A DNA stretch of 64,000 bases. It comes from Candidatus Daviesbacteria bacterium. Lineage in GTDB: Bacteria; Patescibacteriota; Microgenomatia; Daviesbacterales; UBA10151. Location of the stretch: contig JACPKP010000006.1 of the NCBI GenBank assembly GCA_016186955.1, positions 4,055 to 68,054 on the forward strand, read 5' to 3'. This document shows positions 4,079 through 24,359 of the stretch, piece after piece. A program made the translations under genes and the position numbers. The notes beneath the pieces were generated by a model. That model did no database searches, was not told the origin of the DNA, and worked only from the letters and a program-made list of their open reading frames with translations. Numbering within the stretch: the stretch's first letter is position 1; each line of letters begins with the position of its first letter.

Positions 4079-4116
4079 TTTAAGATGGATTTAATTTTTG
4101 TTATAGTATTAACATT

Positions 4117-5370: not shown

Positions 5371-5391
5371 CTGTGCTACAATATATGGTGT

Positions 5392-5460: not shown

Positions 5461-5501
5461 GGAAAAAGAGTGGCTTTTTTGAAGTTCAGGGAGGAAAACA
5501 A

Positions 5502-6059
5502 ATCGGTAAATATTATCGTCTAAATCTAAACATTCAAAGCCAAGAGCTTTTGGTAATTGATTCTGATGGCACTAAACTTGGTGTAATCAGCAAGGCAGAG
5601 GCATTGAATAAAGCACATGAACGTGGTTTAGACCTGGTGGAGATTGCGCCAAATGTTAAACCTCCGGTAGCGAAGATTTTGGATTTCCAAAAATTCCGCT
5701 ATGATGAAAGTAAAAAAGAGCAAGCTGCCAAAAAACATGCCAGGGATGTTTCCTTAAAAGAGATCTGGTTATCACCAAGAATCGCCGAGCATGATCTAAA
5801 CACCAGATTAAAAAGGGCTGATGGGTTTTTGAATGAGGGGGATAAGATTTTATTCAGGGTCAAGTTTAAAGGCAGGGAGATGGCACATTTGGAATTTGGG
5901 TTTCAGCTTTTAAAGAAGATTTTTAATCAATTCGGTGATAAAATAACAATTGAGCGTGAACCGAAGGTAGAAGGAAGAAGTATTACGGCAATAATAGGGA
6001 GGAGTAAAGGAGGGCCTAAAACAAATAATCAAGAAACAAGTAACGGAATAACAAAGTAA
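5502..6059 (+). CDS. infC: translation initiation factor IF-3, probable non-AUG start (AUC at 5502 after AGGGAGGA; the track uses TTG at 5550)
   Basis: YRLNLNIQSQELLVIDSDGTKLGVIS aligns to E. coli [25 protein letters not shown]. The frame is open back to 5470 with no ATG. IF3 classically starts with a rare codon. Confidence 0.8.
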   Translation: MGKYYRLNLNIQSQELLVIDSDGTKLGVISKAEALNKAHERGLDLVEIAPNVKPPVAKILDFQKFRYDESKKEQAAKKHARDVSLKEIWLSPRIAEHDLNTRLKRADGFLNEGDKILFRVKFKGREMAHLEFGFQLLKKIFNQFGDKITIEREPKVEGRSITAIIGRSKGGPKTNNQETSNGITK

Positions 6060-6084
6060 TATTCTTCGAGCAATAAACAATATT

Positions 6085-6285
6085 ATGAAAACTAAGCACA
6101 AAACAAAAAAGGCGCTAAGCAAACGGGTTAAAATTACCGGTACAGGTAAAATTTTGCGTTCGCATCAGTTGAGGGCAGGGCATCTTAAACGCCACAAAAC
6201 AAACAGGGCGCTCAGACGCCACAAAGAACCAATCCTGTTGAATAAAACAATGATAAAATCGTTTAAAAGAATGTTAGGTATATAG
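6085..6285 (+). CDS. rpmI: 50S ribosomal protein L35
   Basis: Small basic protein MKTKHKTKKALSKRVKITGTGKILRSHQ..., placed between infC and rplT as in the conserved operon. Confidence 0.8.
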   Translation: MKTKHKTKKALSKRVKITGTGKILRSHQLRAGHLKRHKTNRALRRHKEPILLNKTMIKSFKRMLGI

Positions 6286-6466
6286 AATATGGGGAGGACA
6301 AGGCGTTTTTTCAGGCAATCTAATAAATCAATGTCCGGTACGGAAGGGGCAAGAAATTTTAACCAGACCAACAGAGGAACCTGGCACGAACGGATATTAA
6401 ATTTTATTAAAGTGAGGGGGAAATCCTCCTACGCCAAGGCTTCGGAGGACAAGGGAATAAACTAAG

Positions 6467-6811
6467 ATGGCGAGAGTTAAAAGAGGCGTGGAGTCACACG
6501 CTAAACATAAAAAATTATTAAACTTAACAAAAGGCCATAAAGGCGGCCGGAGTAAGCTGGTCAAACAAGCCAAAGAATCACTCTTGCATGCAGGGCAATA
6601 TGCTTTTGCCGGGAGAAGACAAAGGAGGCGTGATATGAGGAGGCTTTGGATCACCCAGCTTAATGCTGCAACCAGAGTTGAGGGGATAAGTTATTCAAAG
6701 TTTATTGCAAAATTGAAAGAAAAAAATATCCTGCTTGACAGAAAAATCCTGGCAGATTTGGCAGTAAACCAACCAGCAGATTTTAAGAAAATTGTTTCCC
6801 AAGTTAAATAG
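6467..6811 (+). CDS. rplT: 50S ribosomal protein L20
   Basis: MARVKRGVESHAKHKKLLNLTKGHKGGRSKL... matches the L20 N-terminus. Confidence 0.9.
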   Translation: MARVKRGVESHAKHKKLLNLTKGHKGGRSKLVKQAKESLLHAGQYAFAGRRQRRRDMRRLWITQLNAATRVEGISYSKFIAKLKEKNILLDRKILADLAVNQPADFKKIVSQVK

Positions 6812-6821
6812 TATAATTGAT

Positions 6822-7184
6822 ATGGAAAAAATACCTTATTACCATGCTTCACGGTTTAAAACAGACGGTGATTGTAACCCCACATTCCTTTTAGCTGAAG
6901 AGGCTATTTCTGACAGGGCAAATGCTGATTTACATGTATCCTGCATTGGCGCTTCGTTTGGGGAACGAAGGTTTTCCTGGTTCGTTATTGTGTACGGGCC
7001 AAATTCCCCATCAAACAGCCTTGACCAACAATTACAAAGCATCTTATCAAAAGGGACAACCGTTACCATTCCGGATGATTTCATAAATGGTATGGTAGAA
7101 AGATACGTCCTAGAGGACCAAAAAGACAATAATCTATTAAGTAAACCTATCCATAAAGCCAATAAACCATTTAGCCCAAACTAA
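6822..7184 (+). CDS. hypothetical protein
   Basis: ORF between rplT and pheS. I used the internal ATG (MEKIPYY). Confidence 0.3.
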   Translation: MEKIPYYHASRFKTDGDCNPTFLLAEEAISDRANADLHVSCIGASFGERRFSWFVIVYGPNSPSNSLDQQLQSILSKGTTVTIPDDFINGMVERYVLEDQKDNNLLSKPIHKANKPFSPN

Positions 7185-10062: not shown

Positions 10063-10308
10063 GTGGAAAGAATTCAGGTTGGCTTAGGAGTGTGGACAAA
10101 TATGTATACGCACGAAGAGATAGAAGAAAAAGTAAAAAGACCGCCAGACCCCTGGGTTGTTGAATTTGTGACAAAATCATCTTCTTTAACTGAGCAAGAG
10201 AAAAAAGAGTATTTGGATCCTGTAAATTACAGGCAGATGATGCTTGCAGCTTATGAACATATGTGCAAGGAACACGGCAGAAAGCACCATTCTATAATGC
10301 CACAGTAA
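10063..10308 (+). CDS. hypothetical small protein (81 aa)
   Basis: Intact ORF, convergent with the PBP gene. Confidence 0.3.
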   Translation: MERIQVGLGVWTNMYTHEEIEEKVKRPPDPWVVEFVTKSSSLTEQEKKEYLDPVNYRQMMLAAYEHMCKEHGRKHHSIMPQ

Positions 10309-12820
10309 CCCCGACTGAAGAAGAAAACACTCCACCACTGTTATCCTCCAGCGTCACTGTAATGTTATGTGAACCTTTATCACCTTCAGGAAACTCCACA
10401 TGCTGGGCAAAAGGTTCCTGAGTTTGGACATTTTTTTGAGCCCCATCTATACTCCAGGTAACTTTTTTTACCCCTGCGGGGGAATTTGCTTTCGCCAAAA
10501 CATCAAACACCCTGGGGACATTGACCCCGTTACCGATATTGACTATGGCAATTATTGCATTTGTTGAACCGCCCGAGTTAAATCCGGGGATACCGCTGCA
10601 ACCCCTTGCCATACCAACCAGCCTTTGGTCAGGCGCTGTCAGGACCCAATCATCAATCCCTTTCTGCCATTTATTTGCACCTGTGGGGTCATCCTCCTTG
10701 AGCAATACAACATCTTTTTCCTCTGTATCCTCCCCATCATTTGCAATCCTGTGCAGATTGCTTTTACAAACCTTTTGGCGCTGGTAAGAGGGGGCTGCTG
10801 AATTTGGCATTGTTCCTTTCAGGAAAAACTCCTTCCTGGTGGGAGAACCTTCTTTTGGTATACCACCCATCAATCCGTCTACATCACCTGATATGACATT
10901 TTCAGGCTGTTTGGGTCTTTCATCACCCATATCTTTTAAGGCTAGCGTCATAATTTTCTGCCAGATGGGTGAAGCGCCAGTTACACCTGATGTGATAACA
11001 GGGTTCATAACAGAGTTATCGTTATTGCCAACCCAAACCCCAACCACCCTGGAAGACGTATAGCCAAAAGTCCAGTTGTCCCTTTTCTGGTCAGTAGTTC
11101 CTGTTTTGACAGCAACTGTTTTGCCCGGAATATTTAAAACAGAATTGGAGCCAAAAGCTGCCGACCTGGCGCCGTTATCAGACAAAATATTGGAAATGAT
11201 AAAAGCAATCCCTTCATCCAAAACCTTAACTCCTTCCGAATCCCGGTTTTCATATAAAGTCTTGCCCTTGGAATCCTCAACTTTCAAAATTGAAATTGCA
11301 TCATGTTTTTTCCCGCCATTTGCCAACACACCATATGCTGAAGTCAAATCCAGGAGCCTAATTTCCCGTCCGCCTAAAGTCAGGGCTAGACCGGCATTGT
11401 TAATATTTTCTTCTGTTGGCTCCCAGGTTGTCACACCCATCTTGTATGCTAAATCCATGGCATTTTTTACCCCAACCAAAGCCAGCATTTTAACAGCCGG
11501 AATGTTGTAAGAGTTGCCGAGGGCATAGCGTACCTGGACAGGTCCGCGGAATTGGCCGTCATAGTTGACGGGAATATAGGAGGGCCTGTCACCCCCCGGA
11601 AACTCAGTTGATACATCAACCAACACTGATGCTGCGGTGTACCCCTTTTGCAAAGCTGCAGAATAAGTAATTGGCTTTGTGGCGGAGCCCGGCTGCCTTA
11701 AAGCCAGCGCCACATTAACATTCCCGTCATAATCTTTTGCAAAATAATCCTTAGATCCAACCATAGCCAAAATTGCACCAGTCCGGGGATCTAACACAAC
11801 CGCCGCGCCGTTGCCTACTTTATAATTTTTCAGTTTTTCAATCTCCGTCTGGACAATTTTTTGAGTATCTTCCTGTAGTTTATAATCAAGTGTTGTTGTC
11901 ACCTTTAACCCCCCCTGCTCAACCATCTTATCCCCGAATTGTTCAATCAGTTTTTGCTTAACGTACAACACAAAGTGGGGGGCCTTAAACCCGATTTCGT
12001 TTTGGGCGGTCCGGTAAGCCAGCTCCTCGTTTTTTGCTGCTTCAGCCTGGTCTTTCGAAATATAATTATCCTCAACCATCCGCCGCAGTACTTCTGTCTG
12101 CCGTACTTTAGCTAGTTCGGGATGGGTGCCATACGGGGAATAAACAGAAGGCCGCTGGGGCAAACCTGCCAATAGGGAAGCCTCAGCTAAATCCAGCTCT
12201 TTGGCATGTTTTCCAAAATAAAGGTTGGCTGCAGCTTCTATCCCATATGCAGTCCCGCCGTAAGGGATCTCATTTAAATACATTTCTAAAATCTTATCTT
12301 TGGAATAGACCCTTTCAACCTGGACTGCGAGTATCAACTCTTTTACCTTCCTGATCAGGCTGCGGTCGCTGGTCAAAAGCGCATTTTTGACCAATTGCTG
12401 TGTTAGGGTTGAACCCCCGCCTTCCACCTTCCTGTACAACACCAGCTCAAAAAAAGACCTGGCGATGCCTACAGGTGAAAAGCCCTGGTGATTGTAAAAA
12501 TCCTTATCTTCAATAGAGATAGTGGATTTTTTGACCACATCAGGGACTTCTTCAAGTTTGACAGTGGTGCGGTTCTGGTTTTGGAAGATATCATATAAAA
12601 GTTCACCATTGCGGTCGTAAATTTTTGTTGATTGGGCAACATCACGGTTTTGCAGACTTTCAGGTGTGGGAACTTGGGTAAAAAAGAATAAAACCGCGAT
12701 AATAAAAATCAGCACCAGAAAAACCAGGCTGTAAAGTGAGAAGCTTGACAATGTCGATAAAAACCTTAATTTCGAGATATCTGAATAATCAGGATGCCTT
12801 TTAATTCTCCTAAGGGACAT
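10292..12820 (-). CDS. class A penicillin-binding protein (transglycosylase plus transpeptidase) with a C-terminal Ig-like extension
   Basis: N-terminal TM segment, GT51 motifs (EDKDFYNHQG, GGSTLTQQL, RKVKE), transpeptidase SATKP, SYN and KTGT. Confidence 0.9.
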   Translation of the reverse strand: MSLRRIKRHPDYSDISKLRFLSTLSSFSLYSLVFLVLIFIIAVLFFFTQVPTPESLQNRDVAQSTKIYDRNGELLYDIFQNQNRTTVKLEEVPDVVKKSTISIEDKDFYNHQGFSPVGIARSFFELVLYRKVEGGGSTLTQQLVKNALLTSDRSLIRKVKELILAVQVERVYSKDKILEMYLNEIPYGGTAYGIEAAANLYFGKHAKELDLAEASLLAGLPQRPSVYSPYGTHPELAKVRQTEVLRRMVEDNYISKDQAEAAKNEELAYRTAQNEIGFKAPHFVLYVKQKLIEQFGDKMVEQGGLKVTTTLDYKLQEDTQKIVQTEIEKLKNYKVGNGAAVVLDPRTGAILAMVGSKDYFAKDYDGNVNVALALRQPGSATKPITYSAALQKGYTAASVLVDVSTEFPGGDRPSYIPVNYDGQFRGPVQVRYALGNSYNIPAVKMLALVGVKNAMDLAYKMGVTTWEPTEENINNAGLALTLGGREIRLLDLTSAYGVLANGGKKHDAISILKVEDSKGKTLYENRDSEGVKVLDEGIAFIISNILSDNGARSAAFGSNSVLNIPGKTVAVKTGTTDQKRDNWTFGYTSSRVVGVWVGNNDNSVMNPVITSGVTGASPIWQKIMTLALKDMGDERPKQPENVISGDVDGLMGGIPKEGSPTRKEFFLKGTMPNSAAPSYQRQKVCKSNLHRIANDGEDTEEKDVVLLKEDDPTGANKWQKGIDDWVLTAPDQRLVGMARGCSGIPGFNSGGSTNAIIAIVNIGNGVNVPRVFDVLAKANSPAGVKKVTWSIDGAQKNVQTQEPFAQHVEFPEGDKGSHNITVTLEDNSGGVFSSSVGVTVAL

Positions 12821-12866
12821 GTACTAATTATACAAGCCCAAAACTCAAAATTCAAAAGTAAGTAAT

Positions 12867-12895
12867 TTGACTTTTAACCCATAGTATGGTATAGT
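12867..12895 (+). promoter_or_regulatory. sigma70-like promoter ttgact-17-tatagt for the high-GC small gene
   Basis: ttgacttttaacccatagtatggtatagt followed by the RBS ggaggaag. Confidence 0.5.
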
Positions 12896-12926
12896 AATCA
12901 GGCACTTAAATCTTTGGAGGAAGAGG

Positions 12927-13172
12927 ATGAAAGTTTATTACCTTCCCTACGGCGTCAACCATCCGGTTGACACCGAGAGCCTCGCCGCCCTCAAGGCGGC
13001 GGGGATTCCTTTCTCCGTCCTGGAGAAGGACGGAGCGTCCCGGGTTTTAAGAAACCTGGTAGGCGGAGTCGCCTTGGTCGAAGGCCACGGAGCCTTCGAA
13101 ACAGGGCGGTTGATCCGCCGCATCCGCAAGGCCGGGGTTCCGGCCGAGTGCCTGCCGCTGAAGTCACACTGA
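12927..13172 (+). CDS. high-GC small protein (81 aa), function unknown
   Basis: Intact ORF. Its codon usage is GC-rich (GCC, GGC, CGG) in a low-GC context. Confidence 0.5.
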   Translation: MKVYYLPYGVNHPVDTESLAALKAAGIPFSVLEKDGASRVLRNLVGGVALVEGHGAFETGRLIRRIRKAGVPAECLPLKSH

Positions 13173-13175
13173 GCG

Positions 13176-13215
13176 GTAGTTTGCCCCCTACCAGCTGGTA
13201 GGGGGCTTTTTTTGC
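13176..13215 (+). terminator. intrinsic terminator (cccctaccagctggtaggggg plus T8)
   Basis: GC-rich hairpin plus T-tract read directly. Confidence 0.8.
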
Positions 13216-13249
13216 TAAAAAAATCTGTACTTGGTAAAATACAATATAA

Positions 13250-13322
13250 CCGCAGGTGGCAGAACGGTTGATGCAACAGACTGTAAATCTGTGCCAAGTA
13301 GGTTCGACTCCTACCCTGCGGA
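13250..13322 (+). tRNA. tRNA-Tyr (anticodon GTA), class-I-like with a 5-nt variable loop
   Basis: CCGCAGG acceptor stem pairs with CCTGCGG. Anticodon stem ACAGA/TCTGT with loop CTGTAAA, T-arm GTAGG-TTCGACT-CCTAC, discriminator A. Confidence 0.8.
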
Positions 13323-13378
13323 CACAGCGAAGCGAAGGACACAGCGAAGCGAAAGACACAGGGCAAGCTTTACCCTGC
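13323..13378 (+). repeat. tandem acacagcgaagcgaa(g/a)ga units followed by a second copy of the tRNA-Tyr 3' end (taccctgcggac)
   Basis: Read directly. taccctgcggac occurs at 13312, 13365 and 14498. Confidence 0.6.
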
Positions 13379-13551
13379 GGACCGCAAAATATTTCTTTTT
13401 AGACTTAAACTGCCTATGAATAAAAGATGTCAAGACTTCAATATTGCACTTTTGTTTTGCTTAGTCAGAAGGACAAAAAATTCTATAAAGGACCTATAAG
13501 TCATGTGAGGGAATTATAAGATATTTATTTTTTATGCTATAATCAATACTT

Positions 13552-14364
13552 ATGGATACCCCTGAAGAGTTAAGGAATACATTATCTTTAGAATCAAATC
13601 TTTCTAGAATTGGTATCACTTCCTTAACATTTCCTCAAATCTTTGAAAAATCAAGAATATTTGGTTTAAAAGCTAATCGTGCTTTTATACCTGAACAAAG
13701 GGGGAGGGTGGCAGATGCCTTATTATTGATGCTAGAGGTTCATTTTGATCAAAATCCTCGTCCAGATGGCACTCCTTATACGGACCACCCCCTAACCGTA
13801 GCAGATAAAATTATGGATATTATGGTTAATCCTGACCCAGAATTAGTCATAGCAGCCCTATTACATGATAGTGTAGAAGACCAAAGTAATAAACTAGCCA
13901 GAAAATATAGAGGATACAACGCAGATTCAACACTAACAGATGAGCAAGCGGCACTAGAATTTATAAAAGTACACTATGGTGCAAGGGTTGGAAGAACTGT
14001 AGCTGCTCTTTCAAATCCCGATTTCAATGCACAATTAGCAATTTTAGGAATAAATGAGAATCACCCTGATTATAGAATACATAAAAATATTCTTTACGCT
14101 CAACACGTTGCGGAAATCTCTGAAAATCCTGATGCGTTTTTAATTAAATTAATGGATTTTACTTCAAATGCTGGAGATTTAATGAAATTACCAGATGGAT
14201 CCCAAAAAATTAAACTAATGAGGAAATATGGCCCTGTTGTGGGTACCATGAAAGATGGACTGTCCCGATTAAATCTTCCTATTAAGGAAAAAGCAAAAAT
14301 TTTATTAGAAGCTAAATTAGAAGACATCGACAATTATATTAGTCAACAGATATCTGCAAAATGA
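13552..14364 (+). CDS. small alarmone hydrolase, RelA/SpoT-family HD domain (standalone SAH/Mesh1-like; 270 aa)
   Basis: HD motifs R-x-x-G-x-PY-x-x-HPL-x-VA and AALLHDSVED, then LIKLMD...N, match the Rel hydrolase-domain signature. TGA stop. Confidence 0.75.
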   Translation: MDTPEELRNTLSLESNLSRIGITSLTFPQIFEKSRIFGLKANRAFIPEQRGRVADALLLMLEVHFDQNPRPDGTPYTDHPLTVADKIMDIMVNPDPELVIAALLHDSVEDQSNKLARKYRGYNADSTLTDEQAALEFIKVHYGARVGRTVAALSNPDFNAQLAILGINENHPDYRIHKNILYAQHVAEISENPDAFLIKLMDFTSNAGDLMKLPDGSQKIKLMRKYGPVVGTMKDGLSRLNLPIKEKAKILLEAKLEDIDNYISQQISAK

Positions 14365-14495
14365 TTTTTTTCTTATAAATTTCTATAAACATTTATCTCC
14401 TCAAAGCTCAGAAATGGTATCAGGGTGCGACTAGCGTTCACTAGGCGGACCGAACGAAGTGAGGGGAGCAGGGCAACGTTCTTGCGGAGCAAAGT

Positions 14496-14512
14496 TGTTA
14501 CCCTGCGGACAG
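14496..14512 (+). repeat. third copy of the tRNA-Tyr 3' end (gttaccctgcggacag) inside a GC-rich segment at 14420..14512
   Basis: Exact 12-nt match to the tRNA 3' end. Confidence 0.5.
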
Positions 14513-14554
14513 TTTAATCCTATAGTTGCTTTTATTTCTAATTTTAAGTAAAAT

Positions 14555-16402
14555 GTGGTGCTAAATATGAAAGAAGAAGATTTTTCAAGCATCAACAAGG
14601 CAAGGATTTTACCTCCCATTGGTTCAGAGCTTTTCCTTGCCAAACCCGAGCGCAAAGGTAGTTTACCTCCTAAAATTGCCCAAGACAATAGGCTCATTGA
14701 GCATGCAACGTTCAGGAGAGATCTTTATAAATTATTCGATCATATTTTTGAGTCTATTCAAAACCAAAATCTCAGTATTGGCCAAGCGGTTAAAAAGGGA
14801 TTGATCGGAAAATCAGTTGTTACACGCTTATGGGATGGGCTATCCGATTTTCTTAAGCAGGACGAAAACAATGCCAGAATCCTCCTTTATCTTCCGTTTG
14901 AAACCCTGCCGGATTTAACCGCCGAAAATTGTGTAGAGACTGCCACAGGGCAAAGACTGGTAAATTTATACCAAGATGCTTGGATCAGGCTTCTTCATGA
15001 AACAGAACCCCGGGCGAACTTTGTTGACGGCGATATATTGGAACCGGGTCTTGAACAACCCGAAAGAGTCAGCAAAGCAGGCCATCTTACCCCGGAACTT
15101 CTTATTAGGAAAATAATAACAATTACGGATATACTGCTACTTTTAGAAATAATCCCTGACGGAGATCCGTTAAAATCTATTGCCCAAGGAGTAATGGTTT
15201 CCAAAGATCGGGGACTCATAAGCGGGACAGATTGGGAAAAAGCTTGTGAAATTATTGAAAAAAGGATTAAAGACTTAAGCCTTTTATACCAAAGGGGAGA
15301 AGTTTTTAAAGACCCAAGCTCAGATAAAATTAGCCTGGAAAGGGCAAGTTGGTTAAGAAAAGTGCAGGAGGAAGAAGAGGAAAATAAAAAAGCGTACCTG
15401 CTGTCCCAACAAATTCTTGGCGGACAAAATTTAGAGGCTTTAGTCAAACTTGAGGGGTTGGGAACAGTAGTCATGGCATTAATAAAAACCGGTCAATACT
15501 TGGCCAAGAAGGACAGCGGACAAGCCAAAGAATTTGCCTGCCGGGCGGAAAAAATTATTCAGGAAGCTTGGGAATCAAACGAAATTTCCCTAAAGGATGC
15601 AGTATTGGGAGGGTTGAATCAATGGGCAAGGCTGGGAATTGTTGACAATGCATTTTTACAAACGTTGGGAATTAAATTGACTGATCTATCATCCCCATTC
15701 CAATACGATGAGGGGGGACTTTCTTATGAATTCAAAAGTTTGGTTACAGCCGCAAATAAAATAAAATCCCACCCATTTTTGTCCGGAGTTTTGTACCCGG
15801 GTTTTTTGGTATTTGGATCCAGGCTTAAGGGTTATGCGGATCTGAATGCCGACTTGGATGCTGCAATGTTTTTCAGGCCTAATGCAGATTTTAAAAACAG
15901 GATGCAAATTCTCAGAGTTTTAAGAAGAGAGATTCCTGAAATCCCCAGCATTGATAAATTTCTTGAGTATTGGACAACTTTTGAGGAAGGGAAATTGGTA
16001 TTTGGATCAATCAAGGAGGATACCAGAACATTTGTCGGAGAATCGGCAATACATTTTTTTATGGGCGGGGTTTGGATTGTTGGAGAGCCGGAAATTGCGG
16101 AGCTGCGTGACAACATGCTTGAAAGGTATTTAAATTTGTCCCGTTTTGGCGACGCTAAAATACAAATCAGGCAGAAATTCTTAGGCCAAATTGAACTGGA
16201 CATCCTGCAATACAGGTTAATGCATAAAGGATATGGGAAATTTTATCCGCGGGCAGATAAGGGATACACGCAAAATTCGGATTTGATCGATTATCAAAGC
16301 GATTTTTGGGATCCGGGATACAGGAGGGTTGCAACTAAATTATTTTTAAGCCGGGTTTTCCTGCCAGATCTATACCCAAAATACTTCAATCTGCAACTTT
16401 AA
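14555..16402 (+). CDS. large protein (615 aa) with a C-terminal pol-beta-superfamily nucleotidyltransferase motif
   Basis: LVFGSRLKGYADLNADLDAAMFF fits hG[GS]-x(9-13)-DhD of minimal nucleotidyltransferases. The N-terminal roughly 400 aa is helical with no recognisable motif. Confidence 0.55.
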   Translation: MVLNMKEEDFSSINKARILPPIGSELFLAKPERKGSLPPKIAQDNRLIEHATFRRDLYKLFDHIFESIQNQNLSIGQAVKKGLIGKSVVTRLWDGLSDFLKQDENNARILLYLPFETLPDLTAENCVETATGQRLVNLYQDAWIRLLHETEPRANFVDGDILEPGLEQPERVSKAGHLTPELLIRKIITITDILLLLEIIPDGDPLKSIAQGVMVSKDRGLISGTDWEKACEIIEKRIKDLSLLYQRGEVFKDPSSDKISLERASWLRKVQEEEEENKKAYLLSQQILGGQNLEALVKLEGLGTVVMALIKTGQYLAKKDSGQAKEFACRAEKIIQEAWESNEISLKDAVLGGLNQWARLGIVDNAFLQTLGIKLTDLSSPFQYDEGGLSYEFKSLVTAANKIKSHPFLSGVLYPGFLVFGSRLKGYADLNADLDAAMFFRPNADFKNRMQILRVLRREIPEIPSIDKFLEYWTTFEEGKLVFGSIKEDTRTFVGESAIHFFMGGVWIVGEPEIAELRDNMLERYLNLSRFGDAKIQIRQKFLGQIELDILQYRLMHKGYGKFYPRADKGYTQNSDLIDYQSDFWDPGYRRVATKLFLSRVFLPDLYPKYFNLQL

Positions 16403-16475
16403 ATAACAATTTTGGGTTCAAAATCGTTTAACGAGAGTTGCAAACTCGAGTTAAATGAGTTTATCTTGAGTATAT

Positions 16476-17933
16476 CTACCCTTTGTTGAGAATACTTTGC
16501 CATTTAGGAAGAAAGCGCCTGTCTGCCACTTTCGGTCCATAAGCAGTTCCAACAACAGGTACTTCCAGTTTTTGTGTTACGTATTGCAAAAAGGCTTGTT
16601 CCAAACTTTGGCCTTTAGAGGACGTAAGGGTTGTGACTATTGGACGGCACTCGTTTAAAAGTTGAGTAAGCCGGAATTGGCGCTTATAGTGTGCCGGGTC
16701 GCCAGTATCAGGATGCACTTTTATGCCAATGATTTTATCTGCCGCTAAATCAAAATATTCATCCAAATCAGCAACATAACCCTGATATTTATAAGATTCA
16801 ACTACTTGCCAGTCATTTCTTCCAGATAAAACATCCATGTAACTTACCAGTAAACCGTCAAACGCTTTGCTTCTTTCCGCAAAAGTAAGGGAATATTTAA
16901 GAGCAACTGTATCAAAGTATCCGGTTCTGAAATCACCAAGCCAATCATTTGCGGCATTGTTATACGTTTCTACGAGTGTCTCTGTAAGTTCCGGGTCAAA
17001 ACTTACCAAAGGTCCTGCGCCGTGTCTTGTCAGGTAACTTCTGACAACACCAATTCTAAGGATATTCCCACCATAATTATGGTTTTTCAGTGTTGTTAAA
17101 ACATCTCCTGAGGTTGGGTCAACCTGGGTTACATGGGGAACAAAACCATACCGGGGGTGGTGAAGCGCTCCATGGGAAACTTCATTGACTATGGAACCAT
17201 CCTTTTTGAGTAATTCATCTAAATAATCATCTCCGGTAATTTTTATCAGATCCGCAGCATATCCAAAAGCATCTGCTACAAGACTGACAAGCTCTTTATC
17301 TCTCAACACGCTCATTTCGGAATAAACCCTATCCGGGGGAGCTCCTTCGTAAGAAACTAGTAACTCTTCCGCCGTCTTAAGTTTGGCCAGCCTAATATTT
17401 TCAACTTTTCTTAAGATTGTTTCCCTGTCGCTGAATTCACCTGCCCTTATTGAAAGTTCACTGTTAACTGAATCCTGCACTGCTTCACCAACACCTTTTC
17501 CAATTGTGCCTTTTCTATTCAGTCCGCGTAGTACCTCACGGGTTCTGCTTATTCCGCTATGGAAAGGGGTAGTTGCCAGACAATTTTCATCAATAAACAT
17601 TTTTTCCAGAGGGTTTGGGACTCCAAGCTTTTCTAAATCTAGCGCTTCCTGGAAAAGTTCGACCGGGCTTATGACCATATGTTTTAAATAGGTATCCGCA
17701 CCCTCAAACACACCCGCGCCAAAGTGGCTTAGCGCCATCTCGCGTCCGTCATCGTGGATAATATGGTGTCCGCCTTGCCAACCGCCGGAGCGCCACACAG
17801 TATGGGCATTCAGTTTCCGGACAAGCGCTTGGACAGTATTTCCTTTTGATTCTTCGCCCAAAGCAAGACCATTAACTATGGCAAAATATCTTTCGGTTCC
17901 CATAATTTTCCCTTTCGTCCTGAGCGTAGCCAA
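16476..17933 (-). CDS. adenylosuccinate synthetase (PurA)-family protein with a degenerate P-loop
   Basis: Reads NGLALGEESKGN where PurA has GDEGKGK. WQGGHHIIHDDG matches QGGHNAGHT, and YLTRHGAGPL matches TTRVGAGPFP. Confidence 0.6.
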   Translation of the reverse strand: MATLRTKGKIMGTERYFAIVNGLALGEESKGNTVQALVRKLNAHTVWRSGGWQGGHHIIHDDGREMALSHFGAGVFEGADTYLKHMVISPVELFQEALDLEKLGVPNPLEKMFIDENCLATTPFHSGISRTREVLRGLNRKGTIGKGVGEAVQDSVNSELSIRAGEFSDRETILRKVENIRLAKLKTAEELLVSYEGAPPDRVYSEMSVLRDKELVSLVADAFGYAADLIKITGDDYLDELLKKDGSIVNEVSHGALHHPRYGFVPHVTQVDPTSGDVLTTLKNHNYGGNILRIGVVRSYLTRHGAGPLVSFDPELTETLVETYNNAANDWLGDFRTGYFDTVALKYSLTFAERSKAFDGLLVSYMDVLSGRNDWQVVESYKYQGYVADLDEYFDLAADKIIGIKVHPDTGDPAHYKRQFRLTQLLNECRPIVTTLTSSKGQSLEQAFLQYVTQKLEVPVVGTAYGPKVADRRFLPKWQSILNKG

Positions 17934-18133
17934 GTCATGCTTGGCTAGTCGAAGGACTCATCAGTACGGATTTAATCCGCAGAGGGTTGGCAGCGGCCTG
18001 CGGAGACGATGTAATCCGGGGAAAGCATCACTTTATTGATGCAGCCCCAAAGAACAAAGTTTCCGCAGACCTTGAGCTTTTCAGCTCATGCTGCCCGCTT
18101 GCTCACCTTCGGGTGAGCGGTGAAGAGTGTTTG

Positions 18134-19309
18134 CTAACGATCCAAAGCCGGCGCATTCCAGTTGTCGCCACGTACGAGCGCCGGATCCCGCCTTGGCGGG
18201 CGAGAGGCAGCCTGTTTCCGGTTTGAGTCCTGTTCCTGGTCCAGCTTGTCCCAGGGAATGGCCCCCCCTAGCTGTAGTAGGGCGCCCAGGTAACCGTACT
18301 CCTCGTTGCCTGTAGCGACGTTGGACAGCTCCATGATACCCAAGGCATACCGAGTGATGTTACGTTCGAGACGGACGTAGTCCGCTCCAACGTTGACACC
18401 GAGCATCTTGAGCATCATGTCGCGGGTAGTAGCTCCGACAGTTGCCGGAAGTGCGGGGTCCTCCAGGATCCCCTTAATGCGCGTCGCGTCGTGCGCGAGA
18501 GCCCGAGCAACCGGAATTCCAAGGCCGCCAAAGACCTTGTTGATCCGGTTGATGACGGCTTCTGCCTCATCGCGCAGGCCGGCGGTGTCAGGCGGTTGGA
18601 GCATGCCTGGTGGCATAACAGCGGCACCCCCACGGCCGGTCTGAGCCATGGCGAGGACGGAAAGGGCCATCATAGGATTGTTCACCCCCTTGGCCCACGT
18701 ATCGGTCCAGTTGATGAGCAGCTCGTTGAAGCTGCGAAGCGCCGGCCAGAGTTCGGTGTTGAGCCGGGCGAGGAAAGCGCTCTTGCGCTTGTCGCTCATG
18801 AAATTGCCCGGGTACCCGAGCGCCGACAGGACATCCCCGTAACGGCGTTGCTGAGCCAGCTGGTAGACCTTCTTGAAGTTCTCACCGGCAGGCTCTTCCT
18901 GCTCATCGGCAAACTGCTCTGCACGCGCCAGCAGGACTTCAGGTAGTTCGTACAACCCGACCCTTGCAGCGATTGCAGCTCTCATAGCCGACATCACGTC
19001 GATCCGCTCAACCTTGAGCATCCCTCCGACCTTGAGCATCTCCAGGAAGCTTGAGTCGTCAGGAACGGTCGGAAGCGTGTCGAGCGAAGCCGGTTCGGCA
19101 GTGACCTGTTCGGCCGCAGGTGGCGCGGGGGCGAAGGCTTTAGCAGCCTTCTTGGCCGCGATCACGGTGCATCCGGTGATTTCCCGGATTTCATACTCGT
19201 TTAGGAGCACCATTTCGGCATCGCCCGCGACCCCCTGGTCGGCAAGCTTGCCGGTTTGCTCCTCCGAGAAGCCCAGCTCTGTGAGCCGGGTCTTCAGTTC
19301 CTCGTTCAT
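18134..19309 (-). CDS. high-GC hypothetical protein (about 391 aa; start MNEELKTRL preceded by AAAGGAG)
   Basis: Ala/Arg/Gly-rich with GC-rich codons. I used the internal start at 19307..19309, which has a strong RBS. Confidence 0.5.
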   Translation of the reverse strand: MNEELKTRLTELGFSEEQTGKLADQGVAGDAEMVLLNEYEIREITGCTVIAAKKAAKAFAPAPPAAEQVTAEPASLDTLPTVPDDSSFLEMLKVGGMLKVERIDVMSAMRAAIAARVGLYELPEVLLARAEQFADEQEEPAGENFKKVYQLAQQRRYGDVLSALGYPGNFMSDKRKSAFLARLNTELWPALRSFNELLINWTDTWAKGVNNPMMALSVLAMAQTGRGGAAVMPPGMLQPPDTAGLRDEAEAVINRINKVFGGLGIPVARALAHDATRIKGILEDPALPATVGATTRDMMLKMLGVNVGADYVRLERNITRYALGIMELSNVATGNEEYGYLGALLQLGGAIPWDKLDQEQDSNRKQAASRPPRRDPALVRGDNWNAPALDR

Positions 19310-19401
19310 GAAAAACTCCTTTTTGTTTGCTGTCCACAACACATAGCTGTGGATGCGGGGAAACTTCCGTTTCCTCCTTTCTTCACAGTTTCGGGCTGTT
19401 A

Positions 19402-20526
19402 CTAAGAATCGGCTTCTAAAGGTGTAACGTTTTCGCCTTGCCTCGAGTGGCTGATGGGCCATGCGTGGCGGTAGTGGGCGAATACATCTCCCGGGCGGGG
19501 GATGTCCTGGTAGCCGGGCAGCTTAGACTGAGCGCCAAAATGCTCCTGCGCTACCTGAACCATCCGCCAAACCTGATTGAGGTTGGCGGCGTCAATCGTT
19601 ACCTTATCGCCGGTCCGCAGGAACTCGATTAGACCCTGCTTGCTCGGCTTTGACGCCTCCGTCACATAGACGAGGGCTGCACGCACGTCAGCCAAAAGAC
19701 CCGGGTTTTCAACCTGGATGATCCGGCTGCGTCCTCCCAGCTTCTCCGCCCACCAATCCGTAGTGTACGGAAGGAGTCGGCCGGTATAAGTAGGGACTTG
19801 CAGTACGAAAGGATGCCAATGCTCCAAGAGCTGCCGGCAGATTTCCTCCGTCGCCATATTCAAGAAATCAGCTGCCTGGCCAAGATATTCCCTGACGCCC
19901 TCAGCGGTCACGAACCCGCGTCCGATCTCGTCTAAGGCGATCGTCAAATAGCCCTTGAGACCGTAGTAGGTCCATGTGTCCGCGTAGACCGACAGGGCGT
20001 AGTACAGGCCCAAATCGTAATCTTCGGCTGACGAGTCGTTTCCCATGCTTGCAGGCTGGAGCAGCCGCACCTGTTCGGCGCTCCGCTCATCAGACTCAAA
20101 CTGAGAAACTTGAACGACCGGAAGTCCGTCGTTATGGACATTGTAAAAGTCATTTACAACGCCTGTTGCGAGCTGCGGGTTGTACCGGGTTCGCACTCCA
20201 TCAAGCAGCTTGTACTGTCGCTCGGCTGTGCGGAAGAAATCCCCAACATATTGGGATGTACTCCCGGTGCCGTCGAAAAGACTGAGAACCGGCAAGGAAA
20301 CACCGTGGGTCAGAAGATAGGTACCTGGTTCATCACTGGGAACCATCGCGTTATGGCTTTCCCGCGGCTTCTTGCCGACGATGTCGACATTGGGATGAAG
20401 GTGGCCTGTTACGTCGCGGTACGTTTTTCCCGCATCGTGAACACCCTCATGCCGTTGATTCATAGAGCGGACAGTCGCCCGGTAGGATTCCGGGTCAAAT
20501 TGCCGTACATTTTGGGGATTCCCCAT
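19402..20526 (-). CDS. high-GC hypothetical protein (374 aa); possible vWA-like MIDAS-type motif LFDGTGST
   Basis: RBS ggaaaggag before the ATG. The flanking promoter region is AT-rich. The motif assignment is tentative. Confidence 0.45.
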   Translation of the reverse strand: MGNPQNVRQFDPESYRATVRSMNQRHEGVHDAGKTYRDVTGHLHPNVDIVGKKPRESHNAMVPSDEPGTYLLTHGVSLPVLSLFDGTGSTSQYVGDFFRTAERQYKLLDGVRTRYNPQLATGVVNDFYNVHNDGLPVVQVSQFESDERSAEQVRLLQPASMGNDSSAEDYDLGLYYALSVYADTWTYYGLKGYLTIALDEIGRGFVTAEGVREYLGQAADFLNMATEEICRQLLEHWHPFVLQVPTYTGRLLPYTTDWWAEKLGGRSRIIQVENPGLLADVRAALVYVTEASKPSKQGLIEFLRTGDKVTIDAANLNQVWRMVQVAQEHFGAQSKLPGYQDIPRPGDVFAHYRHAWPISHSRQGENVTPLEADS

Positions 20527-20941
20527 CTCAGACTCCTTTCCAAAGGTTATTTACAGTCCAACCAATCAAGATACGTTACGTGCCTTTGATCAGCCGTTGA
20601 TAGTTACCTCCTTTCACTCTTCACTTGTCAATGTGCCTTTTGCCTAGTTTTCTAGACAAACAGGTAAATCTTTATCAGGATCCACTTGTTTGTTTAGAAA
20701 ACGTCGTCAATTGTACTCTAAAATGTAATTTTGTGTCAAGGAACGCTGGCATGAAACAATATAGTGTTAATATTACACTAACTATTGGGAGAAATCAAGA
20801 TCCAAAAGCTCGGTATTTCAATTAAACTCTTCTGAGTATGACGCAACAAATTTACTACAAGATAATATGGTATAATTCAATTATGAATAAAAATGCAGCA
20901 TACAAAGCTAAAGAACCAAAAAAGTTTTAACAGTTCAATTT

Positions 20942-21781
20942 ATGGATCAACAGGAATCTGACCCGGAAAGTACGTTAATTGAGGAGGAGGCAAAAAGTAA
21001 AATAAGGGATTTTTTATCAGATCCAAAATTAAAATTCCACTTCTCCCGTCCATACAGGCTCCAGCAAATACTTTCGCAGGGGATTATTTCCAAGTCATTC
21101 GCAGACCGTGCAAAGCTTGATTATGAAAGTAATTTAGGAATTAGAAATCCAAGGTTAATCAGTATTTCAGACCGGGTAAAAAATAACGAATGGGGCGACT
21201 GGTGGTTGATACAATTTGCGTCGGAGAGGGACAATATCGGTTATTTGCTGCCAAGTGATTTGGAGATTGAATCAACGACCCCTCATCCTTCCGAATCACA
21301 GGTTAAATTCAGGATCAGCCCGAGACAAATAGAAGGCATCTTCGTTATGGATACAAAAACCTTACAAGAACCCATCAGCCAAATTGATTACAGTCTTGAT
21401 GCAACCGGTTTTGTTGCCAGGTATACATTAGCATTAGAAAAAGTTTCCGATTTCAACAGGGAATCGATTCGGAAAAATCATCCCCGTCTTAAATATCTGG
21501 AACACGAACTAAGGGACTTAAGACAAGGTGTGGCTGGTATGAAATATAAGGACTGGCCGGAAGGTGTAAAAAAAGCAATCAGCCTGTTTATTGACCGGGA
21601 AGACGAGATTATTGATGAAATTGCAAAGAAACAGTTGGAAGAATTAATCGGTAAACCCGCTGAAACTATTACACAGCTTGACCTTTACACCCACTTTGCA
21701 AAAAAAGCCGGAATACCAATTTATATTATTGATAAAAATTTATTGGCTGCCAAAGTAGTTTGGCCTCCTGTTGGTAGGTAA
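20942..21781 (+). CDS. hypothetical protein (279 aa)
   Basis: Intact ORF with no motif recognised. Confidence 0.4.
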   Translation: MDQQESDPESTLIEEEAKSKIRDFLSDPKLKFHFSRPYRLQQILSQGIISKSFADRAKLDYESNLGIRNPRLISISDRVKNNEWGDWWLIQFASERDNIGYLLPSDLEIESTTPHPSESQVKFRISPRQIEGIFVMDTKTLQEPISQIDYSLDATGFVARYTLALEKVSDFNRESIRKNHPRLKYLEHELRDLRQGVAGMKYKDWPEGVKKAISLFIDREDEIIDEIAKKQLEELIGKPAETITQLDLYTHFAKKAGIPIYIIDKNLLAAKVVWPPVGR

Positions 21782-21807
21782 ACGAGGTTAAATTAGTATT
21801 AACTTTC

Positions 21808-22434
21808 TTAAGGCTTTCTCCAAATAGGGTAGCAGTGCTCCTTAGTAAATTCTCTGATAAATTCCAGGCTGGATGCAACCAATTCTCCCGGCTTTTTACC
21901 GCTGATCTCAATATATCCAATCATCCTGCCTAAAAACTCTTCCGACCCTCTTTGCCCAAAGGTTATAGTTGAAAGTTTCCCGTCCCGGCGTTGCGACTGG
22001 GTAAACTCAAAGCTGTTTTTAACAATTTTTAAATTACCACAATCCTGCATTTTGATACGAAAACTACTGTCATATTTATCGGAGCTTTTACCAAGTTCAA
22101 ACAATGTCACATGTCCGTCAAGATCAAGGTAACCACTATCTCCACCACCCCATTTAGTTAGATCCATCATACCCGGTTTATAATCTAATTCTGCTGCTTT
22201 CAAACAGCCGTCAGAAAAATGTGCGGGTTTAAATTGCAATCTTTTGGTATCTGGAAAGGCTACAGCTAAATGTTCAATTAATTTAGTAGGTAAAGCAAAC
22301 GGGTCTCCCGGTATGAAATACTCATTAGGCCATTTATAAATCTGGCCTTCATCGGGATCTGTGGAGATCTGATATCTGCCCTCTAGACCAATCTCCTGCA
22401 CCCGGGTGTGTTTAGATTCTAAATGTAAACCCAT
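21808..22434 (-). CDS. hypothetical protein (208 aa)
   Basis: Intact ORF with no motif recognised. Confidence 0.4.
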   Translation of the reverse strand: MGLHLESKHTRVQEIGLEGRYQISTDPDEGQIYKWPNEYFIPGDPFALPTKLIEHLAVAFPDTKRLQFKPAHFSDGCLKAAELDYKPGMMDLTKWGGGDSGYLDLDGHVTLFELGKSSDKYDSSFRIKMQDCGNLKIVKNSFEFTQSQRRDGKLSTITFGQRGSEEFLGRMIGYIEISGKKPGELVASSLEFIREFTKEHCYPIWRKP

Positions 22435-22493
22435 TGAACCAGATTCTATATAGTTTATATCTGTGTGTCAAGTGCGAGTGCAATTGCAAAATC

Positions 22494-24359
22494 TTATCTA
22501 CTGAAGAAGAAATCCCAAATAATCTGGAGGAAATCGCGTCCGGCAGAAACTGATACACCCTGGACACTGGGAGCTGGGGTAGACTGCTGCGGGGCAGGAG
22601 TTGACTGATCCGGGGCAGGGGTAGATGATGAAGTTGTCGGCGCCGGGGTAGAGTTGCTGGTACTGCCGGATGAAGCACACTGGCATTGGCAATAATCACC
22701 GCTCCAGTTGCAACTCCCGCCGCACGAGGTGCAACCTGCTTGCTGCTGGTCACGGCTCATTGTAGATGTAGTCGTAGAAGTTGAATTGGAAGTACTACCG
22801 CTAGGCATTTGGCAGTAAGAGCCGTTCCAACTACCTCCTGCCTGTCCACAGGCTGTGGCAGGATCGCTGCTATAACCTGAAGATGAATAAGGATAGGGCG
22901 TAGCATAGCTCCCTCCGCTTGTTGTCCCTGAAGAATTGTATCCGGCGCATCTGCAATAACCCGGGCTCCAGTCACAGGTTCCTCCGCCAGACCTACATGT
23001 TGACTCCTGACTCTCCCTGCTTCCATAATAGCCGGAAGAAGATGGATAACTAGACGTTCCCGGGTAAGGTGAGTAGCTTGCTCCCGGTGCGCCACCACTA
23101 ATCGGGCTTTGGTAACCCTTGCAATAACAGTGTCCTGAACTCCAATCGCATGTCCCGCCTCCAGACTTACAAGTCGATTCCTGGCTTTCTTTACTTCCGT
23201 AATAACCATCCTGCGAACCAGGGGTGTATGTTTTGATCTCCCCGTTAAAAGCGCACGCACATGAATTGTTTGTCCATTTACAATTAGTTGTCCTGTTACA
23301 CATATCCTGGGGATTATAATTTCCGGTAGTGCCTTCAGGTGAAGAATCACGGCAGGATCCGCCATCCCAATACCTACCCGCCTGGGAACACCTCCAAGCG
23401 TCCTGACTTTTATCCAGGGGTGTACAAACACCTCCAGGACCGTAGTAATAGTTAGCGGGACAAGCTTGTGTATAAACATTCCCACCGTATGAACCGCAGG
23501 CGCAGGTATTATTATTCCATGCGCAATTAGGCGTCCTGGCGCAGTATTCCTGAGGGGTATAGTTGCTACCACCCTCACGGTTTTGCGATATAGACCGGCA
23601 TTTTTCCGGGTTTTGTCTGCAGTATGCAGCGCAGGATTCTGCAGTGTTACAACCGCCCGGACCACTGAAGGATTCCACCCCGACTGATTTTGAATATGAT
23701 GAACATATGTTGTAGTTAGCTGGGTCGCTGCAAAAGGCTTTACAGGTGCCTTCTGAGCTGCATCCACCCGGACCAACCTGCTGCTGGCCGCCGCGCAAAC
23801 CTACCTCCTTTGCAAACTCTGAGCATTTTTGCTTGTTTGCCTCCAATCCGCAAAACGTCATGCAATCTTGGGGTGAAGTACAACCTAAGGCCTCTTTTGC
23901 TTTTTCCAGGATCTTTTTTTCTTCTGTTGACCTGACCTGGCCTCCAACCAGGTTATTTTTCCTGGCAAACGAGTCGCATTCATCTACATGCTCCGGCTTA
24001 TCGCAATAACTTTTACAGCTTTCAAAGGAATTACACCCAAAACTTTGTTTTGCCTTGGCTAAAATCTCATCTTTTTTGACAGTTTCCTGCTCTTCTTTAT
24101 AAAAACCTTTCTTTTTGGCAAAATCAATACAGGTCGTATAGTTTACCGGATCCTCACAAAAGCTCCTGCATGATGAGATATCCTGGCAATCACCAAGTTC
24201 TGCAACCGGAAATGTCACACCATATTTTTGGGCAGTCTCGGCAGAATCACTGGCTGATTGGGTTTGGGCAAAAACACCTTTTACCCCAAAAAACAAAAAA
24301 ATAACAGCCGCAAGAGGGAAAATTATTTTTTTGTATTGTCCGTATATAGTTTCTGTCAT
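22494..24359 (-). CDS. secreted Cys-rich repeat protein with a Ser/Tyr/Pro/Thr-rich tail and a C-terminal QIIWDF motif (621 aa)
   Basis: N-terminal signal peptide. Repeated modules of about 40 aa (C-x-SFC-x-P-x-NY-x-C-x-FAKK-G-(F/Y)) and GPGGC-x-T-x-E-x-C. Ends with DFLQIIWDFFFSR. Confidence 0.6.
   Translation of the reverse strand: MTETIYGQYKKIIFPLAAVIFLFFGVKGVFAQTQSASDSAETAQKYGVTFPVAELGDCQDISSCRSFCEDPVNYTTCIDFAKKKGFYKEEQETVKKDEILAKAKQSFGCNSFESCKSYCDKPEHVDECDSFARKNNLVGGQVRSTEEKKILEKAKEALGCTSPQDCMTFCGLEANKQKCSEFAKEVGLRGGQQQVGPGGCSSEGTCKAFCSDPANYNICSSYSKSVGVESFSGPGGCNTAESCAAYCRQNPEKCRSISQNREGGSNYTPQEYCARTPNCAWNNNTCACGSYGGNVYTQACPANYYYGPGGVCTPLDKSQDAWRCSQAGRYWDGGSCRDSSPEGTTGNYNPQDMCNRTTNCKWTNNSCACAFNGEIKTYTPGSQDGYYGSKESQESTCKSGGGTCDWSSGHCYCKGYQSPISGGAPGASYSPYPGTSSYPSSSGYYGSRESQESTCRSGGGTCDWSPGYCRCAGYNSSGTTSGGSYATPYPYSSSGYSSDPATACGQAGGSWNGSYCQMPSGSTSNSTSTTTSTMSRDQQQAGCTSCGGSCNWSGDYCQCQCASSGSTSNSTPAPTTSSSTPAPDQSTPAPQQSTPAPSVQGVSVSAGRDFLQIIWDFFFSR

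Follow-up and report, generated by a model that had tools for sequence, protein, structure and literature searches.

Some alarmone-synthetase toxins of the FaRel/PhRel/CapRel type (toxSAS) are neutralised by a small alarmone hydrolase (SAH). A gene order that recalls such systems occurs in Candidatus Daviesbacteria bacterium, in a 64,000-nt stretch of contig JACPKP010000006.1 (assembly GCA_016186955.1, positions 4,055 to 68,054 of the forward strand). We refer to this whole stretch as the window and count positions from its first letter. Downstream of a tRNA-Tyr gene, a 270-aa standalone RelA/SpoT-type HD hydrolase of the SAH type (13552-14364, + strand) is followed by a 615-aa protein with a nucleotidyltransferase motif (NTase; 14555-16402, + strand). 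The initial annotation had proposed that the pair may be a module for toxin and immunity, or for defence, akin to toxSAS. Our analysis points instead, with a probability of about 70%, to two unrelated neighbours: an insertion of ~1.2 kb at tRNA-Tyr that holds the SAH, and an NTase that is the first gene of a conserved cluster found across the candidate phyla radiation (CPR).

The genomic context of the NTase was determined from a scan of species-representative genomes, which returned 80 NTase loci in Microgenomates, Parcubacteria, Saccharibacteria, Peribacteria-type lineages and others; the neighbourhood census comprised 84 loci with NTase homologues across Patescibacteria. The NTase homologue was adjacent to a diverged member of the adenylosuccinate-synthetase family (PurA-like) in 77 of these 84 loci, to a protein with a von Willebrand factor A (vWA) domain (Y) in 68 and to a conserved protein with a SAM-like domain (X) in 54. 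An SAH was adjacent in none of the 84. Clustering of the neighbouring open reading frames (ORFs) added a fifth gene, Z (~279 aa), at 53 of 82 loci. In the canonical layout, the NTase gene lies on one strand and the four others on the opposite one, in the order NT(+), X(-), PurA-like(-), Y(-), Z(-). One locus of our comparison set (L104; other loci and contigs are labelled likewise) has all five genes colinear as Z-Y-PurA-like-X-NT, and in another (L009, 8184-11680) the PurA-like and NTase genes overlap on one strand. Two proteins, P0253 (1129 aa) and P0285 (1102 aa), carry an N-terminal PurA-like domain fused to a complete NTase-family C-terminus. The PurA-family gene, previously regarded as a mere downstream neighbour, is in fact the conserved partner of the NTase, as its adjacency and these fusions attest.

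Conservation of the pair in a syntenic core of relatives had been named in the initial annotation as an outcome that would speak against its proposal. The NTase is indeed a member of a conserved syntenic core, and the SAH lies outside that core. Because none of the 84 loci pairs the two genes and the partners of the NTase are the PurA-like gene and three others, the SAH is very probably not its partner. The same was found from the other side, as no NTase homologue was present in the contexts of SAH homologues that we examined. Our literature search found no paper describing the cluster.

The NTase itself belongs to a discrete and moderately large family: an exhaustive profile search yielded 571 representatives at 50% identity, nearly all of them full length. 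The NCBI start is the ATG at 14567, which gives a protein of 611 aa; the 615-aa protein has 100% identity to HYW46_03675 (P0001, Candidatus Daviesbacteria). An all-alpha region at its N-terminus contains HEAT/ARM-like repeats, and the C-terminus is predicted to be a minimal nucleotidyltransferase domain of the MNT-like type, an identity supported at the domain level. The motif by which the protein was first recognised, VFGSRLKGYADLNADLD, is present in the translation, and the pol-beta nucleotidyltransferase signature G421 S422 ... D433 x D435, with a predicted beta-alpha-beta topology, proved to be invariant in the family. Across 40 sequences G421, S422, K425, D433 and D435 never vary and E471 hardly does, so that the catalytic pattern of the superfamily, hG[GS]-x(9-13)-Dh[DE]h, is conserved. 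The N-terminal region has invariant residues of its own, including R153, G159, H177, R263 and W266, and conserved motifs such as RANFVDGD; no Pfam or NCBIfam model covers it. A profile of the 40 sequences matched the minimal nucleotidyltransferase HI0073 among PDB sequences with E=7.4e-5 over 43 residues (E=0.47 for the single sequence), and many homologues have precomputed matches to PF18765 or PF01909. As had been stated before, the protein is not a canonical RelA/SpoT synthetase: the synthetase domain (PF04607) was unmatched in Pfam at E <= 0.1, where a weak Polbeta match was the sole one. No HEPN or AbiEi partner was detected among its neighbours SAH, PurA-like, X and Y with Pfam, NCBIfam or PADLOC. 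PADLOC, including its CD-NTase/CBASS and AbiE models, gave no match at E <= 0.1 for these four proteins or for the NTase.

At the domain level, the 270-aa protein is accepted as a standalone SAH-type hydrolase. The HD motifs that had suggested this (HPLTVA, AALLHDSVED and LIKLMD) are all found in the translation, and the assignment was borne out by several comparisons. The Pfam model HD_4 (PF13328) matched marginally (27.3 bits, cut-off 27.2), the NCBIfam model spoT_relA (TIGR00691) matched locally with E=1.2e-8, and the closest PDB matches were MESH1/HDDC3 and the hydrolase domains of Rel (E=3.5e-6 to 1e-3). A match to PHROG 990 was also obtained (E=1e-15). Only HD_4 and HD were found in Pfam, and a synthetase domain is absent. 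Nine residues are invariant in an alignment of 27 family members (H64, H79, H105, D106, E109, D110, K199, D202 and N206), which we take to correspond to the metal-binding and catalytic positions of MESH1 and Rel. The family comprises 55 homologues, 47 of which have a PF13328 match, and its distribution is patchy: it occurs in CPR bacteria, in actinomycetes (Actinomadura and its relatives) and in five jumbo phages of Microbacterium, where the homologues are annotated as 'SpoT-like'. The neighbourhoods of these homologues are mutually unrelated, with MFS and MarR genes in L090, genes for a serine recombinase and for helix-turn-helix (HTH), NUDIX and HEPN proteins in L092, and other genes in L100. 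The L092 locus (156-6870, Paceibacterota) has a mobile- or defence-type appearance, with a serine recombinase, an HTH protein, a 597-aa protein, the SAH, NUDIX and HEPN. Its 597-aa protein, upstream of the SAH homologue, was considered as a relative of the NTase and ruled out for lack of any similarity.

In the window, the SAH gene has a GC content of 35% compared with 42% for the genome. An extended -10-like element, TGCTATAAT, can be read from the sequence at 13535-13543 (+ strand), 8 nt before the ATG of the SAH gene. A scan for consensus promoters did not list it, as no -35 element matches. The element suggests that the SAH gene may have a promoter of its own, possibly giving a leaderless mRNA.

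The boundaries of the insertion are marked by copies of the end of the tRNA gene. The tRNA-Tyr (anticodon GTA, 74 nt; 13250-13323, + strand) was identified by ARAGORN and by the Rfam tRNA model (57.7 bits), and its terminal 12 nt (13312-13323), TACCCTGCGGAC, constitute the first copy of the repeat. The 64 kb contain this 12-mer exactly three times, always on the + strand, at 13312-13323, 13371-13382 and 14499-14510; shuffled controls contained 0.10 matches on average and in none of 100 shuffles were there three. The second and third copies enclose the SAH ORF. The threefold recurrence of the tRNA end around the SAH gene, as initially annotated, thus stands. Of the positions given for it, 13312 is correct, and 13365 and 14498 need to be shifted by 6 nt and 1 nt, to 13371 and 14499, respectively. 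The repeat is in fact longer than 12 nt, since 13320-13382 and 14447-14510 form an imperfect direct repeat of ~63 nt (families D1/D2).

On the left side, the interval 13324-13382 (+ strand) consists of a 47-nt spacer and the second 12-mer copy (13371-13382). The spacer opens, directly 3' of the tRNA (13324-13357), with two 17-nt tandem units, ACAGCGAAGCGAAGGAC and ACAGCGAAGCGAAAGAC, and does not fold better than shuffled sequences (z = -0.45). On the right side, the unit at 14439-14510 (+ strand) starts with a degenerate fourth copy of the 12-mer, CACTAGGCGGAC (14439-14450), abutting a 48-nt spacer (14451-14498) that leads to the exact third copy (14499-14510). This last copy is followed by a trailer, AGTTTAATCCTATAGTT (14511-14527, + strand), and a (T/A)-rich...CCTATAGTT motif after the last copy of the tRNA end is also present in relatives. 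We considered the repeat units as decayed tRNA copies, which was rejected because alignments of the spacers to the tRNA body score no better than shuffles, and as structured RNAs, which was rejected because of a folding z of about -0.5 for the four units tested.

A metagenome scan with the 3' 22-mer of tRNA-Tyr identified four contigs (L093, L095, L096 and L097) that carry the same 74-nt tRNA. Upstream of it, L093 and L097 share the gene order of the window; their PheT and PBP1A have ~50-70% amino acid identity (~70% for the L097 PBP1A), and the tRNA-Tyr gene adjoins the PBP1A gene in both. Downstream, L093 and L097 have other genes, and neither an SAH nor an NTase gene is among them. In L097 the tRNA is followed by a 68-nt spacer, a second exact 12-mer and then a trailer like that of the window. 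The start of this spacer, CGAACGTAGTGAGGG, is homologous to CGAACGAAGTGAGGGG of the right-hand spacer of the window (local score 27, reached in 1 of 500 shuffles). L096 and L097, from the Ga0209541 and Ga0209542 metagenomes, are identical (100%) over 518 nt, and this identity ends at the last base of the 12-mer; past it, L097 has an extra 80-nt unit relative to L096 and all genes downstream differ. The divergence point of these two contigs suggests that the 3' end of tRNA-Tyr is a recombination hotspot. Both contain the trailer TTAnGnCCTATAGTT, the counterpart of which in the window is the one after the third copy, and the trailers of the individual lineages read TTAAGTCCTATAGTT in L096, TTATGCCCTATAGTT in L097 and TAATCCTGTGATT in L093. 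In L093, a partial 17-nt copy of the T-arm lies 33 nt 3' of the tRNA-Tyr. Chance occurrence of the 12-mer, raised earlier as a possible objection, does not explain these data, as a second copy of the tRNA end is also found in the relative L097. Serial integration at tRNA-Tyr, as envisaged in the initial annotation, is reasonably supported by non-random repeats that are shared with relatives and by the divergence of L096 and L097 at the tRNA end.

The tRNA-Tyr has a C1-G72 pair and a short variable loop of 5 nt, which we take to be features of the archaeal/eukaryal type; bacterial tRNA-Tyr usually has a long variable arm. Two other loci of our set carry different forms: the tRNA-Tyr of L043 (Saccharibacteria) is 84 nt long, and in L094 a long arm is combined with C1-G72. 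In the window, an 81-aa ORF without family match (12927-13206, 62% GC) and, after it, a perfect terminator hairpin with 12-bp arms separate the PBP1A gene from tRNA-Tyr. The corresponding gap in L097 and L093 is too small for this ORF.

Several observations weigh against the view of two unrelated neighbours or against parts of it. The SAH gene is on the same strand as the NTase gene and upstream of it, with no obvious terminator between them, and the two may be co-transcribed in this strain. An empty tRNA-Tyr/NTase junction was found in no sampled relative, so that we infer the SAH insertion itself from the repeat architecture and from the polymorphism in another lineage. Every relative sampled differs in the genes downstream of tRNA-Tyr, and for this reason the breakpoint may span more than 1.2 kb. 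No recombinase was detected in the insertion, in which the SAH is the sole ORF, or in the neighbours examined (10292-24359, the part of the window that the scan covered in full). The nucleotidyltransferase models remain below their cut-offs for the NTase (PF18765, Polbeta, 19.3 bits with a cut-off of 26.9, E=1.3e-3; NCBIfam MntA, 22.6 bits with a cut-off of 60, E=7.5e-5). Finally, the hammerhead motif described below reached the Rfam gathering score neither in the window nor in six related loci.

Alternatively, the 12-mer copies could result from local tandem duplication, slippage or tRNA decay, and the SAH gene could have arrived otherwise than by integration at an attachment site. An integrase is absent, the tandem 17-nt repeat of the left spacer attests to local duplication activity, and the units of ~63 nt are imperfect and lack a clean core, all of which would fit this explanation. 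We nevertheless regard it as unlikely: the spacers are not significantly similar to the body of the tRNA, L096 and L097 diverge exactly at the end of the 12-mer after sequence that is 100% identical, the same trailer comes after the final copy in three lineages, and the cargo differs in each relative.

Slightly less plausible still is that the island exceeds 1.2 kb and that the NTase/PurA-like/X/Y cluster came or moved together with the SAH as one block. It is true that the NTase cluster follows this tRNA-Tyr in none of the relatives that carry it, and tRNA-Tyr, which we sought upstream of the NTase in all 84 loci, is found there in no other locus than the window. X and Y also have a GC content of 56-60% in a genome of 42%, and the X protein of the window is closer to that of distant Paceibacterota (E = 1e-113 to 1e-116) than to a protein of L001, the closest relative, which has a weakly similar 332-aa protein in the X position. 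However, X and Y are enriched in GC as families, at nearly all of the 84 loci (on average +10 and +7.5 points, respectively, above the local background), and their high GC content therefore does not indicate a recent transfer in this genome. The similarities of NTase, PurA-like and Y track relatedness, with L005 and L001 being both the closest and the most similar, and the 64 kb hold no further copy of the 12-mer that would close a larger island. Viral contigs, moreover, hardly ever carry a member of the NTase family (2 loci among 2.9 million contigs). The GC-rich block at 18-20.5 kb, which covers X and Y (58-60% GC, genome 42%), was also considered as a foreign insertion or an assembly chimera, which was rejected in view of the family-wide enrichment.

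We find it improbable that the repeat units function as RNA or in regulation, for instance as tRNA-like minihelices, processing signals or terminators that reuse the 3' strand of the acceptor stem. In each unit, an upstream CAGGG or GCAGGG can pair with the CCCTG(C) of the 12-mer, and the 12-mer is exact in the second and third copies even though these lie outside any tRNA. Yet the folding z was about -0.5 in all four units tested, no T-run follows the units on the + strand, no match to Rfam was found, and spacer length and sequence vary between genomes.

The pairing proposed initially, in which the NTase would produce a toxic nucleotide or modify a target by nucleotidylation and the SAH would reverse this, is largely refuted by synteny and very improbable: the genes are adjacent on one strand, 190 nt apart and without a clear terminator between them, the SAH belongs to a hydrolase family that neutralises some toxSAS toxins and the layout recurs in five contigs of the same population, but those contigs represent one strain and are not independent, none of the 84 NTase loci has an SAH and none of the SAH contexts examined an NTase homologue, the NTase family is vertically distributed in a CPR-wide five-gene cluster and sometimes fused to PurA-like, PADLOC was negative and the NTase has no RelA/SpoT synthetase domain.

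We retain the reading of an SAH islet next to an independent NTase cluster, and the remaining components of this cluster were analysed in turn. The PurA-like gene of the window (16476-17903, - strand; PF00709, 144 bits) is convergent with the NTase gene; its ORF extends over 16476-17933, and the ATG at 17903 is the likely start. Scores against the NCBIfam PurA and PurZ equivalogs are all far below the cut-offs (300-947), the best being 110 bits where the cut-off is 402. Compared with E. coli PurA, the protein has kept the P-loop Lys (K16), the catalytic His41, the T-R motif of the aspartate site and D333, and it has changed D13E, N38Q, T129I, Q224H and K331Y; the roles of these positions in IMP contact, the aspartate site and guanine specificity are assumed from PurA. 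This suggests a similar chemistry with a different substrate, and the protein is probably not a housekeeping PurA.

X (18134-19309, - strand, 60% GC) is a conserved protein of ~400 aa with an N-terminal SAM-like domain; the Pfam scan gave SAM-like matches only, with PF22931 (SAM_TNK) in 13 of 32 members. Y (19402-20526, - strand, 56% GC) has a vWA fold with a MIDAS-like motif, D85-x-T87-x-S89, and no Pfam match was obtained in a scan of all Y members. Neither X nor Y matched any PDB sequence. Z is pseudokinase-like and normally heads a Z-Y-PurA-like-X operon, as in L083 (6341-7159) and L012 (14168-15004). It is absent from the interval 20527-21800 of the window, which contains, on the opposite strand, a divergent 279-aa ORF without family match. 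In 22 of 82 loci (e.g., L001, 11808-12464), the cluster has next to it a gene for a NUDIX protein that includes a winged-helix domain of the NrtR type; the window is without one.

Part of the cluster has counterparts in phages. In Bxz1-type mycobacteriophages, including Rizal (L102, 149067-152846), gp250 (Z-like), gp251 (Y-like, vWA) and gp253 (PurA-like) are neighbours. Rizal gp250, which has a weak J-domain-like match and a kinase-like domain, is homologous to the Z protein of CPR bacteria. In Vibrio phage Va1 (L103, 16725-18807), the Y-like Va1_038 directly precedes the PurA-like Va1_039, annotated as 'adenylosuccinate synthase'. No NTase homologue was found among GenBank phages, and both of the IMG/VR contigs with an NTase (2 of 2.9 million) carry the whole cluster.

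A motif of the type III hammerhead ribozyme lies at 17910-17986 (- strand) and ends 6 nt upstream of the ATG of the PurA-like gene. Its Rfam score (RF00008) is 27 bits with a gathering score of 48.5 (E=0.016), and its predicted fold is the hammerhead secondary structure (z = -2.7). A motif scan found the core and stems upstream of the PurA-like genes of 6 loci, including L003, L005, L007, L009 and L010, and several loci have the motif at other positions as well. The motifs map to 9440-9490 in L003, 12331-12408 in L005, 13251-13301 and 15814-15862 in L007, 14988-15057 in L008, 8215-8265 in L009 and 13148-13220 in L010. In an alignment of nine sequences, CUGAUGA and GAAA are invariant and 9 of 15 base pairs show compensatory changes, with none broken. 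Stem III overlaps, with its 3' strand (AGGG, AGGA or AGGT), what is likely to be the Shine-Dalgarno sequence of the PurA-like gene. Cleavage by the hammerhead might consequently unmask translation of PurA-like.

From these elements, a tentative scheme can be drawn for the locus. The accessory insertion (13324-14510, ~1.2 kb) would be built of units made of a copy of the tRNA 3' end and a spacer of ~50 nt, most likely the product of several rounds of site-specific recombination at the 3' end of the tRNA, in which elements accreted and were then deleted. One such event would have carried the SAH gene into the window. As its Mn2+-binding and catalytic residues are intact, the SAH is predicted to act alone in the Mn2+-dependent removal of the 3'-pyrophosphate from nucleotides of the (p)ppGpp/(p)ppApp type, and its role may be alarmone housekeeping or protection against alarmone-synthetase toxins. 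The NTase would work with PurA-like in a multi-protein, GTP/NTP-dependent modification machine. In this machine PurA-like might activate a carbonyl with GTP and couple it to an amine, the NTase might transfer an NMP, and the vWA/MIDAS protein, the SAM-like domain and the pseudokinase might help to assemble it or to recognise its target. The hammerhead that overlaps the ribosome-binding site of PurA-like could, in the Microgenomates-like branch, cut the operon mRNA. Most likely, the cluster modifies a macromolecule or a nucleotide in a GTP/NTP-dependent manner; any particular substrate could be named with low confidence only.

The islet with its standalone alarmone-type hydrolase is an ordinary accessory element. 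It suggests that tRNA genes of Daviesbacteria are targets of site-specific insertion and that CPR bacteria, actinomycetes and phages exchange SAH genes. Of more value is a by-product of the analysis, the cluster marked by the NTase, which occurs in essentially every major lineage of Patescibacteria sampled. It stands out by the NTase/PurA-like fusions, a core triad common to large phages and a covarying hammerhead within the operon, and most of its components are covered by no Pfam, NCBIfam or PADLOC model. As a tentative proposal, which we hold at somewhat less than even odds, the cluster would be an undescribed five-component CPR system that consists of the pseudokinase-like Z, the vWA/MIDAS protein Y, the SAM-like X, a PurA-like ligase dependent on GTP, and an NTase with HEAT repeats. 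It would be gated in some lineages by a hammerhead ribozyme masking the ribosome-binding site of PurA-like, would have its Z-Y-PurA-like core in common with Bxz1-type phages and Va1, and would carry out a new nucleotide-dependent modification of a protein, RNA or metabolite that is important for the reduced, host-dependent lifestyle. Because cultivable Saccharibacteria carry the cluster, with homologues at loci such as L055, L062, L068 and L071, its function is genetically testable.

Compared with known systems, the SAH resembles MESH1/HDDC3 and single-domain SpoT-like proteins in its single HD domain, its H...HD...ED...D...N constellation and the lack of a synthetase domain. It differs in that the Pfam match just reaches the threshold, over ~50 residues and the KLxD...N motif, and in an insert of ~85 residues between the HD/ED and D/N motifs; its subfamily is small and patchy. 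Like toxSAS systems, the locus has an SAH-type hydrolase adjoining a gene with a nucleotidyltransferase-type motif. In contrast to them, this neighbour is not a RelA/SpoT-homologue synthetase (no PF04607), is kept without an SAH in 84 of 84 loci and matches no defence model. The insertion shares with islets, or cis-mobilisable remnants of integrative elements, at tRNA 3' ends the direct repeats of the tRNA terminus around accessory cargo and the tandem copies, and in L096 and L097 a polymorphism starts exactly at the tRNA end. It departs from them in lacking an integrase, in its single-gene cargo and in a spacer of ~50 nt within the unit that is conserved between genomes, and an excised or empty form of it was not seen in the relatives sampled.

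The hammerhead has the full CUGAUGA...GAAA core of type III (RF00008) and three stems, of which I and III covary, and a C occupies the position of cleavage, whereas it is a minimal form with a stem III of 4-5 bp, scores below the Rfam gathering threshold and is located inside an operon, over a ribosome-binding site. The NTase shares G-S-x(10)-D-x-D and the surrounding hydrophobic strands with MNT/MntA, HI0073 and AbiEii-like proteins (PF18765, PF01909). In the NTase, however, this core takes up ~100 of 615 residues and follows a conserved helical domain of ~400 residues, and the partners are PurA-like, vWA, SAM-like and pseudokinase-like proteins, with no HEPN partner in the window. Finally, PurA-like has the PF00709 fold of PurA and phage PurZ over ~370 residues and retains the P-loop Lys, His41, T-R and the Asp of guanine specificity. 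It is set apart from both by its changed IMP contacts (N38Q, T129I and Q224H) together with D13E and K331Y, and by its constant linkage to a vWA protein and, in CPR bacteria, to the NTase as well.

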